13,455 bases of DNA from a virus. The translations under genes and the position numbers were made by a program. The notes beneath the pieces are model-generated. The model made no database searches, was not told the DNA's origin, and saw only the letters and a list, made by a program, of their open reading frames with translations. Positions 12,531 through 12,833 of this stretch are shown here, one piece after another (positions within the stretch are counted from its first letter, which is position 1; each line of letters starts with the position of its first letter). The stretch lies in the UHGV virus genome UHGV-0114979; one strand, written 5' to 3'.

Positions 12531-12833
12531 TTAGCCACGGTTAACCTCCTGCGGAGTAGCCTTCACAAGCACTGGTGCAAATCCATCTTCATTAAGGTTA
12601 TGAATATAGACTTCTGTTCTCCTGCGCTCTTCAACGTTTAATATTGTTTCTGGATCATAAACCCATACTTTCATTCGACTATTCCATGAAGAAATCGCTT
12701 CAGATTTAGTTCGTTTTTCTGGTCCTTTGGCACCACATTTGCATGACACATAGCGCATTCCCCCTCTGATACTGAATGAGTATCCGATGTTAAGCACAGT
12801 GGAACCACAGAATGGGCAGCGATATAGATTCAT
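12531..12833 (-). CDS. Lar-family restriction-alleviation protein homologue with a C-terminal extension
   Basis: 100 aa, with SD AAGGTGGA 6 nt upstream of ATG 12833. MNLYRCPFCGSTVLNIGYSFSIRGGMRYVSCKCGAKGPEKRTKSEAISSWNSR matches the Lar-family zinc-ribbon pattern (CPFCG … C-x-CGA-x-GP … EAI-x-WN-x-R). About 45 extra C-terminal residues. The start overlaps the stop of the upstream gene (ATGA). Confidence 0.65.
   Translation of the reverse strand: MNLYRCPFCGSTVLNIGYSFSIRGGMRYVSCKCGAKGPEKRTKSEAISSWNSRMKVWVYDPETILNVEERRRTEVYIHNLNEDGFAPVLVKATPQEVNRG

Follow-up and report, generated by a model that had tools for sequence, protein, structure and literature searches.

A Lar-family protein with a conserved, clade-specific C-terminal tail in a P22-like temperate phage

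The Ral protein of phage lambda is a functional analogue of Lar. It is a small protein of the early-left operon that relieves restriction by EcoKI-type enzymes and stimulates their modification of DNA. To our knowledge, the two proteins are usually taken to have no sequence relationship. The passage of PMC6158711 on anti-RM proteins lists Ral and Lar together as worth investigating. For the anti-RM protein Lar it cites King & Murray 1995, the same work that PMC11482910 cites for the anti-type-I activity of Lar. The alleviation of EcoKI-type restriction with enhancement of modification is known for Rac Lar alone (King & Murray 1995, via PMC11482910 and PMC6158711). This protein is also RalR (E. 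coli K-12 b1348, 64 aa). Under that name, it was reported as a toxic, non-specific, Mg2+/Ca2+-dependent DNase (PMC4041452). Mutations at positions 14, 37, 39, 49, 51 and 52 lowered its toxicity, and K52Q abolished the DNase activity (PMC4041452). Thus, the reference mechanism is itself unsettled. A PhageMaP preprint (PMC11482910) suggested for the Lar homologue carried by phage Bas63 a possible part in the evasion of type IV rather than type I systems. The family is widespread, yet it has one characterised member of 64 aa, whose mechanism is disputed between restriction alleviation and a DNase toxin.

We analysed a stretch of 13,455 nucleotides from the virus genome UHGV-0114979 (hereafter, the window). 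A previous sequence-only reading had proposed in it a Lar-family anti-restriction protein with an unusual C-terminal extension. The reading frame, with the C-terminal sequence quoted there, was found on the minus strand. It encodes 100 amino acids from an ATG start. The features considered are the following.

12531–12833, minus strand: lar-like gene, 100 codons plus a TAA stop, with an ATG start; orthologue, by sequence comparison, of gene 20 of Shigella phage Sf6.
12675–12833, minus strand: predicted Lar zinc-ribbon domain, residues 1–53 (PF14354, TIGR03655, invariant cysteines, AlphaFold2). Its elements are C6-x2-C9, a beta-hairpin (14–31), C31-x-C33, a helix (43–52) and W50-N51-x-R53.
12534–12674, minus strand: clade-specific C-terminal tail, residues 54–100 (conservation among homologues, dN/dS, pLDDT).
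12830–12833, minus strand: ATGA, in which the start of lar overlaps the stop of the Ea22-like gene (sequence and ORF coordinates).
12841–12847, minus strand: Shine-Dalgarno-like AAGGTGG, 7 nt before the lar ATG and inside the 3' end of the Ea22-like gene (sequence).
12830–13455, minus strand: Ead/Ea22-like gene, 3' part (Pfam PF13935 Ead_Ea22, 43 bits).
12450–12501, minus strand: two tandem intrinsic-terminator-like hairpins, whose stems have 9 and 8 pairs and a T-run behind each (consensus scan).

The N-terminal half of the protein belongs to the Lar family, as three independent profile libraries confirmed at the level of sequence. Pfam PF14354 (Lar_restr_allev) matches residues 2–53 with 36.0 bits (E 8e-9; curated gathering cut-off, 28.6 bits). 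The NCBIfam model TIGR03655 (anti_R_Lar) matches residues 3–54 with 58 bits (E 8e-16; cut-off, 39.6 bits). Likewise, phrog_599, a 'Lar-like restriction alleviation protein', matches with an E value of 2.4e-17. With both HMM scores above their cut-offs, the earlier assignment of the first 55 or so residues to Lar holds.

The domain presents four cysteines (C6, C9, C31 and C33), invariant in 21 sequences. They make up two putative knuckles that flank the beta-hairpin of the structural model, as in a zinc ribbon. W50, N51 and R53, invariant in 19–21 homologues, terminate the helix 43–52 and align with the WNKR of Rac Lar. We used an AlphaFold2 model built on a 19-sequence alignment (mean pLDDT 86, pTM 0.65), and a 9-sequence model was discarded for its poor N-domain (pLDDT 62). 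In the model used, the Lar domain has pLDDT values of 81–92. It superposes on phage Lar proteins with an rmsd of 1.1–2.4 Å over 52–65 columns (probability 1.00, Foldseek against BFVD). The N-domain is basic (pI 9.8).

The tail goes beyond the end of the Lar profile (residue 53–54) by 46–47 residues, and Rac Lar aligns to residues 2–53 only. This agrees with the 45 or so extra residues that had been counted before. AlphaFold2 predicts a strand (55–59), a helix (67–82) and a second strand (86–90), with pLDDT values of 86–93 for residues 51–90. Among 19 homologues, Y59, T63, E69, T73, Y76, I77, G84 and F85 are invariant. The motifs of the tail are MKVW[VF]Y[DN]PET, ERRRT..YI and DGF.P. Its mean pairwise identity is 66%, against 75% for the Lar domain in the same homologues. 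The tail is mildly acidic (pI 5.2, net charge -2.4).

We estimated dN/dS with the Nei-Gojobori method on the coding DNA of the IMG/VR loci. Between E. coli-type and Enterobacter-type genes, the values were 0.16 for the tail and 0.12 for the Lar domain. Within the Enterobacter-type genes, they were 0.155 and 0.13, respectively. Within the E. coli-type genes, the tail had a value of 0.145. The Lar domain gave 2.17 in this last set, an uninformative value, with almost no substitutions behind it (dS 0.007). The tail is genuine coding sequence and belongs to the protein as such; it is neither an artefact nor a gene fused to lar.

We scanned IMG/VR with two tail motifs as patterns, and 46 loci were confirmed. 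The Lar domain is fused upstream of the tail in 45 of them, and the gene is intact (97–100 aa) in 43. In the one locus outside the 45 (L038), the first 15 residues are replaced by a different sequence, and another has a divergent C-terminal end (L039, 94 aa). In a third (L049, IMG/VR contig 3300011132_000014), the stop is lost and the frame reads through into the downstream gene, with a product of 190 aa.

No stand-alone tail was recovered. With phmmer, the 47-residue tail matched only Lar+tail proteins, their fragments and noise among 1.84 billion representatives. The noise consisted of multi-stretch matches in proteins of 600–1,200 aa that resemble charged coil. A profile of 17 tail sequences, run against 5.8 billion proteins, gave only fragments and low-complexity noise, and in both searches the tail fell within the E. 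coli/Enterobacter clade. Judged by these searches, the tail was found only fused to the Lar domain, in prophages of E. coli and Enterobacter. Similarly, the tail alone had zero matches in PHROGs at E values up to 1. Against Pfam it gave only noise (CATSPERE_NTD2, E 0.15, 12.6 bits for a cut-off of 27), and no match appeared in the PADLOC defence library. The best Foldseek match of the full model in the PDB was not significant (E 0.098, TM < 0.3), and neither was that of the sequence profile against PDB sequences (E 0.41). An origin of the tail from RcbA, the product of the gene that lies downstream of ralR in Rac and overlaps with it, was considered and rejected, as the two have no similarity.

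Databases hold some shorter entries. Those of 45–47 aa contain only the tail and begin at Met54. One of 47 aa (P0016) was traced to its DNA in two loci, L056 (2342–2644) and L057. Both hold an intact ORF of 100 codons, so the entry is a start-site miscall. A second look-up, for P0034, gave no match. Apparent miscalls of the lar gene are recurrent in public records, with starts at Met26 or Met54 (P0005, 75 aa, 147 member sequences; P0016, P0036 and P0037, 47 aa). A different case is a 74-aa ENA entry (P0015), in which a lambda-N-like N-terminus (PF11438) continues in frame into the end of the tail (its last ~25 residues). This chimera is probably a deletion across the early-left operon of some prophage.

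In one homologue (P0003), the N-domain is 70% identical to that of the window protein, and the tail is 96% identical. Among the E. coli-type genes (L010–L037), the Lar domain has a synonymous divergence of 0.007, against 0.068 for the tail. Compared at the sequence level, this mosaic and the unequal divergence suggest a recombination joint near the boundary between Lar and tail.

With 100 aa, the window protein exceeds the single-domain size of Rac Lar (~55–65 aa). Nevertheless, length is not a strict criterion for the family. Thirteen matches to the fold among predicted viral structures (Foldseek) carry the name of restriction alleviation proteins; seven have 62–68 aa and six have 93–132 aa. 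All the Lar-fold matches together span 56–168 aa. The annotated phage Lar-like proteins that we sampled have 55, 60 and 81 aa. A tblastn search of the N-domain against the phage collection returned 14 records, and it is too insensitive to sample the family. Two proteins of 118–119 aa (P0032 and P0033) consist of two tandem Lar zinc ribbons, each with CPFC, CKCGA and WNTR. Like the window protein, these two and the Lar-fold proteins of 93–168 aa have a Lar core with extra sequence. However, the extra part of P0032 and P0033 is a second Lar domain, unlike the tail of the window protein. An extended Lar is common as a category, and, in the searches made, this particular tail is specific to one clade.

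The protein itself is already catalogued. Sf6 gp20 (NP_958196.1) has an equal length and 94% identity over 100 residues, and RefSeq names it 'Lar-like restriction alleviation protein'. An unannotated ORF in four Stx1a-converting phages is also of equal length, with 97% identity. The 303-nt gene is present in 154 of 5,426 complete E. coli genomes at a nucleotide identity of at least 95%. In the E. coli records listed, its product has the PGAP name 'Lar family restriction alleviation protein' (for example, WP_071528459.1). A profile search of the 5.8-billion-protein collection gave about 20 clusters of E. coli and Enterobacter proteins (97–101 aa), with identities as low as 53%. The Lar+tail gene is carried by 46 viral contigs or loci in IMG/VR. 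On this sequence comparison, we regard the window protein as the orthologue of Sf6 gp20 and not as a new protein. The extension is thus real and clade-specific in comparison with Rac Lar, as had been claimed, and it is not routine among characterised Lar proteins, since the sole one, Rac Lar (64 aa), does not have it. But it is less unusual than was supposed: the same 100-aa architecture is present in Sf6 gp20 and in E. coli genomes, and length variation is common in the family. Our literature search found no paper that studies the Lar+tail subfamily or its tail.

The gene upstream of lar is Ea22-like, as the sequence-only reading had it. Its stop TGA lies at 12832–12830, and the ATG of lar is at 12833–12831. 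The Ea22-like frame is open to position 13455, and its true start lies beyond the end of the window; the homologue in L056 has 233 aa. Of the translational coupling that was proposed between the two genes, the overlap of four bases is confirmed; the coupling itself was inferred from it. Lar has its own Shine-Dalgarno-like motif, so its initiation need not depend on coupling. In five loci (L005–L009), the same 4-nt overlap occurs with differing upstream genes, and in L004 a gap of ~950 nt separates lar from the end of the closest gene called upstream. In Enterobacter prophages, lar is near int after Ea22 or DUF551 genes, or between the replication and terminase genes. It overlaps the preceding gene by 4 nt in five of the six Enterobacter places. 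Because the overlap recurs with unrelated upstream genes, it represents a generic tight packing of the operon, with no specific link to Ea22. The neighbours differ between loci, and therefore the Lar+tail protein has no fixed partner gene.

On the 3' side of lar, the two tandem hairpins adjoin the gene and precede a phrog_1229 gene (12086–12430). A third hairpin follows that gene (12028–12047). In the region, four terminator-like hairpins were found, against 1.7 expected from shuffles. At 12503–12538 of the minus strand, there is a remnant of 11 codons (GTG..TAA, MANLQLAVKGE*) of an ASCH-domain gene; in most E. coli prophages, that gene and the end of lar overlap. The identity to L056 ends at 12504. 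Therefore, the ASCH gene was deleted or replaced in the window.

As a whole, the window is a temperate phage of P22-like, mosaic make-up, and none of the phage records reaches a coverage of 80%. It carries genes for DNA-transfer proteins, a P22-type immI with sar RNA, a tailspike, an acyltransferase, an integrase and an excisionase. The sar RNA (RF00262) is full-length, at 5214–5281 of the minus strand, with 94 bits for a gathering score of 43. It overlaps the start of an ant-like ORF (5252–6184), and Mnt/Arc-like ORFs adjoin (4515–4769, minus strand; 4843–5031, plus strand). This sar/ant/Mnt-Arc-like region is an immI of the P22 type. The integrase gene (10656–11834) is on the plus strand, opposite to xis and lar. 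It adjoins an acyltransferase-like gene (8635–9627, minus strand) and the tailspike. Hence, the window shows the attP-joined permutation of a phage rather than a prophage junction. In E. coli X14-3 (L002), a similar int abuts sbcB.

We hold, with somewhat more belief than doubt, that this is a Lar of the Sf6 gp20 type, which by analogy would alleviate EcoKI-family restriction, with the tail as an added contact surface or a stabiliser. The gene lies in the early-left (pL-type) operon of the P22-like phage, next to its xis/int end, where Rac has lar/ralR. If it works like its Rac homologue, the Lar+tail protein would most likely act early after infection or induction; its target would be the type I (EcoKI-family) restriction-modification enzyme of the host, with restriction alleviated and the modification of phage DNA favoured. 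The tail would most likely add a contact surface for a partner or for self-association, or stabilise the small zinc ribbon. We infer in this way the anti-restriction activity, the target and any role of the tail; the family membership, the conserved tail and its fusion to Lar, the predicted secondary structure and the gene context are observations. The 33% identity to Rac Lar, which extends across the whole Lar core and includes CPFCG and WNxR, argues for a Lar-like function. So does the position on the xis/int side, which parallels that of Rac. On the other hand, this identity to the sole characterised Lar covers only 52 residues, and the second knuckle is C-x-C instead of C-x2-C. The family is also large and almost wholly uncharacterised.

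It is possible, although we consider it doubtful, that only the fold is common with Rac Lar and that the job differs. The Lar+tail proteins would then block another defence (type IV or other) or bind nucleic acid as small regulators, and the tail would determine their specificity. The conservation of the tail, its restriction to one clade and its dissimilarity to known families are consistent with a different job. The mosaic homologue (P0003) suggests that the halves are exchangeable as modules, and a Lar homologue of Bas63 was suggested to evade type IV systems (PMC11482910). However, nothing positive points to any alternative target. The tail is short and, with its mild negative charge, not like a DNA mimic, and neither PADLOC nor another family library gives a match. 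The idea of altered or additional specificity, already raised by the sequence-only reading, is conjecture because the tail resembles no known domain. A stronger version, which we think unlikely, takes Lar+tail as a distinct subfamily whose tail is an exchangeable specificity module. Such a module would turn the Lar zinc ribbon from EcoKI-type enzymes to a different target, for example some other defence of Enterobacteriaceae, restriction included, or would extend it to type I families beyond the reach of Rac Lar.

A function like that of RalR is a good deal less probable. The protein would be a toxin with non-specific, Mg2+/Ca2+-dependent DNase activity, in a type I toxin-antitoxin pair with a small antisense RNA. 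It does belong to the Pfam/NCBIfam family of RalR, which was reported as DNA-cleaving and toxic (PMC4041452), and its N-domain is basic. Nevertheless, the lysine of RalR whose change to glutamine leaves no DNase activity (K52) is serine in 17 of the 19 clade members. R49 is replaced by serine or alanine, and C14 by an invariant serine (S11). Of the six toxicity-linked positions, N51 alone is clearly retained, and the alignment with the Lar+tail proteins is ambiguous at positions 37 and 39 of RalR. The window search returned no Rfam RNA near lar, with the presence of a RalA model in Rfam unconfirmed; a trans-acting RNA may lie beyond the window. The best antisense complementarity to lar in the window was an arm of 21 nt at 76%, and one promoter-like site was found in the region for 2.2 expected from shuffles. 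Finally, 154 E. coli genomes carry the gene in intact form, and its neighbours vary.

An origin of the extension as an artefact (read-through, a frameshift fusion with the downstream gene, or two genes called as one) has a negligible chance, in spite of the tail-only (45–47 aa) and 74–75-aa database entries and the 190-aa read-through of L049, and it is refuted by the 97–101-aa frame, which is unbroken in 43 of 46 viral loci as well as in the window, Sf6 and the clade proteins, by the dN/dS values, which indicate selection on the tail in this frame, and by the traced 47-aa entry P0016, a miscall of the start in L056 and L057, while the tail has no similarity to RcbA either.

The annotation of the gene changes little: it is a Lar-family protein of the Sf6 gp20 type, a name that public pipelines already give. 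What this work defines is a compact and well-conserved subfamily, Lar+tail, for which the structure model is confident and the domain boundaries are clear (1–53 and 54–100). These boundaries offer a clean pair of constructs for probing what Lar proteins bind. If the tail sets the target specificity, the subfamily would be an example of phages that diversify a minimal anti-restriction scaffold.

Compared with Rac Lar, the window protein has 33% identity in BLASTP, confined to residues 2–53. Residues 5–54 of RalR match the whole Pfam Lar model, and this characterised protein is therefore all Lar core. After WNKR, Rac Lar has 11 residues; after WNSR, the window protein has 47. Both present the CPFCG knuckle, a second pair of cysteines and a helix ending in WN-x-R, and both are basic. 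Nevertheless, the second knuckle is C-x-C in the window protein (C31, C33) and C-x2-C in Rac Lar. Each of the two genes is close to xis/int, where the early-left operon ends. The order is int-xis-orf(phrog_1229)-lar-ea22 in the window and int-xis-rcbA-ralR-recT in Rac. Unlike in Rac, no RalA-like RNA was found for the window lar, and no rcbA-like gene is its neighbour. The closest relatives are Sf6 gp20 and the Lar proteins of E. coli prophages (94–97% identity). In most of these prophages, an ASCH-domain gene follows lar, where the window keeps 11 codons of it and Sf6 has gene 19. The window protein differs from the Sf6 and E. coli prophage proteins by few substitutions, for example at G25 and K36. 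The tail, the ATGA overlap with an ead/Ea22-like gene and the early-left position all match between them and the window.
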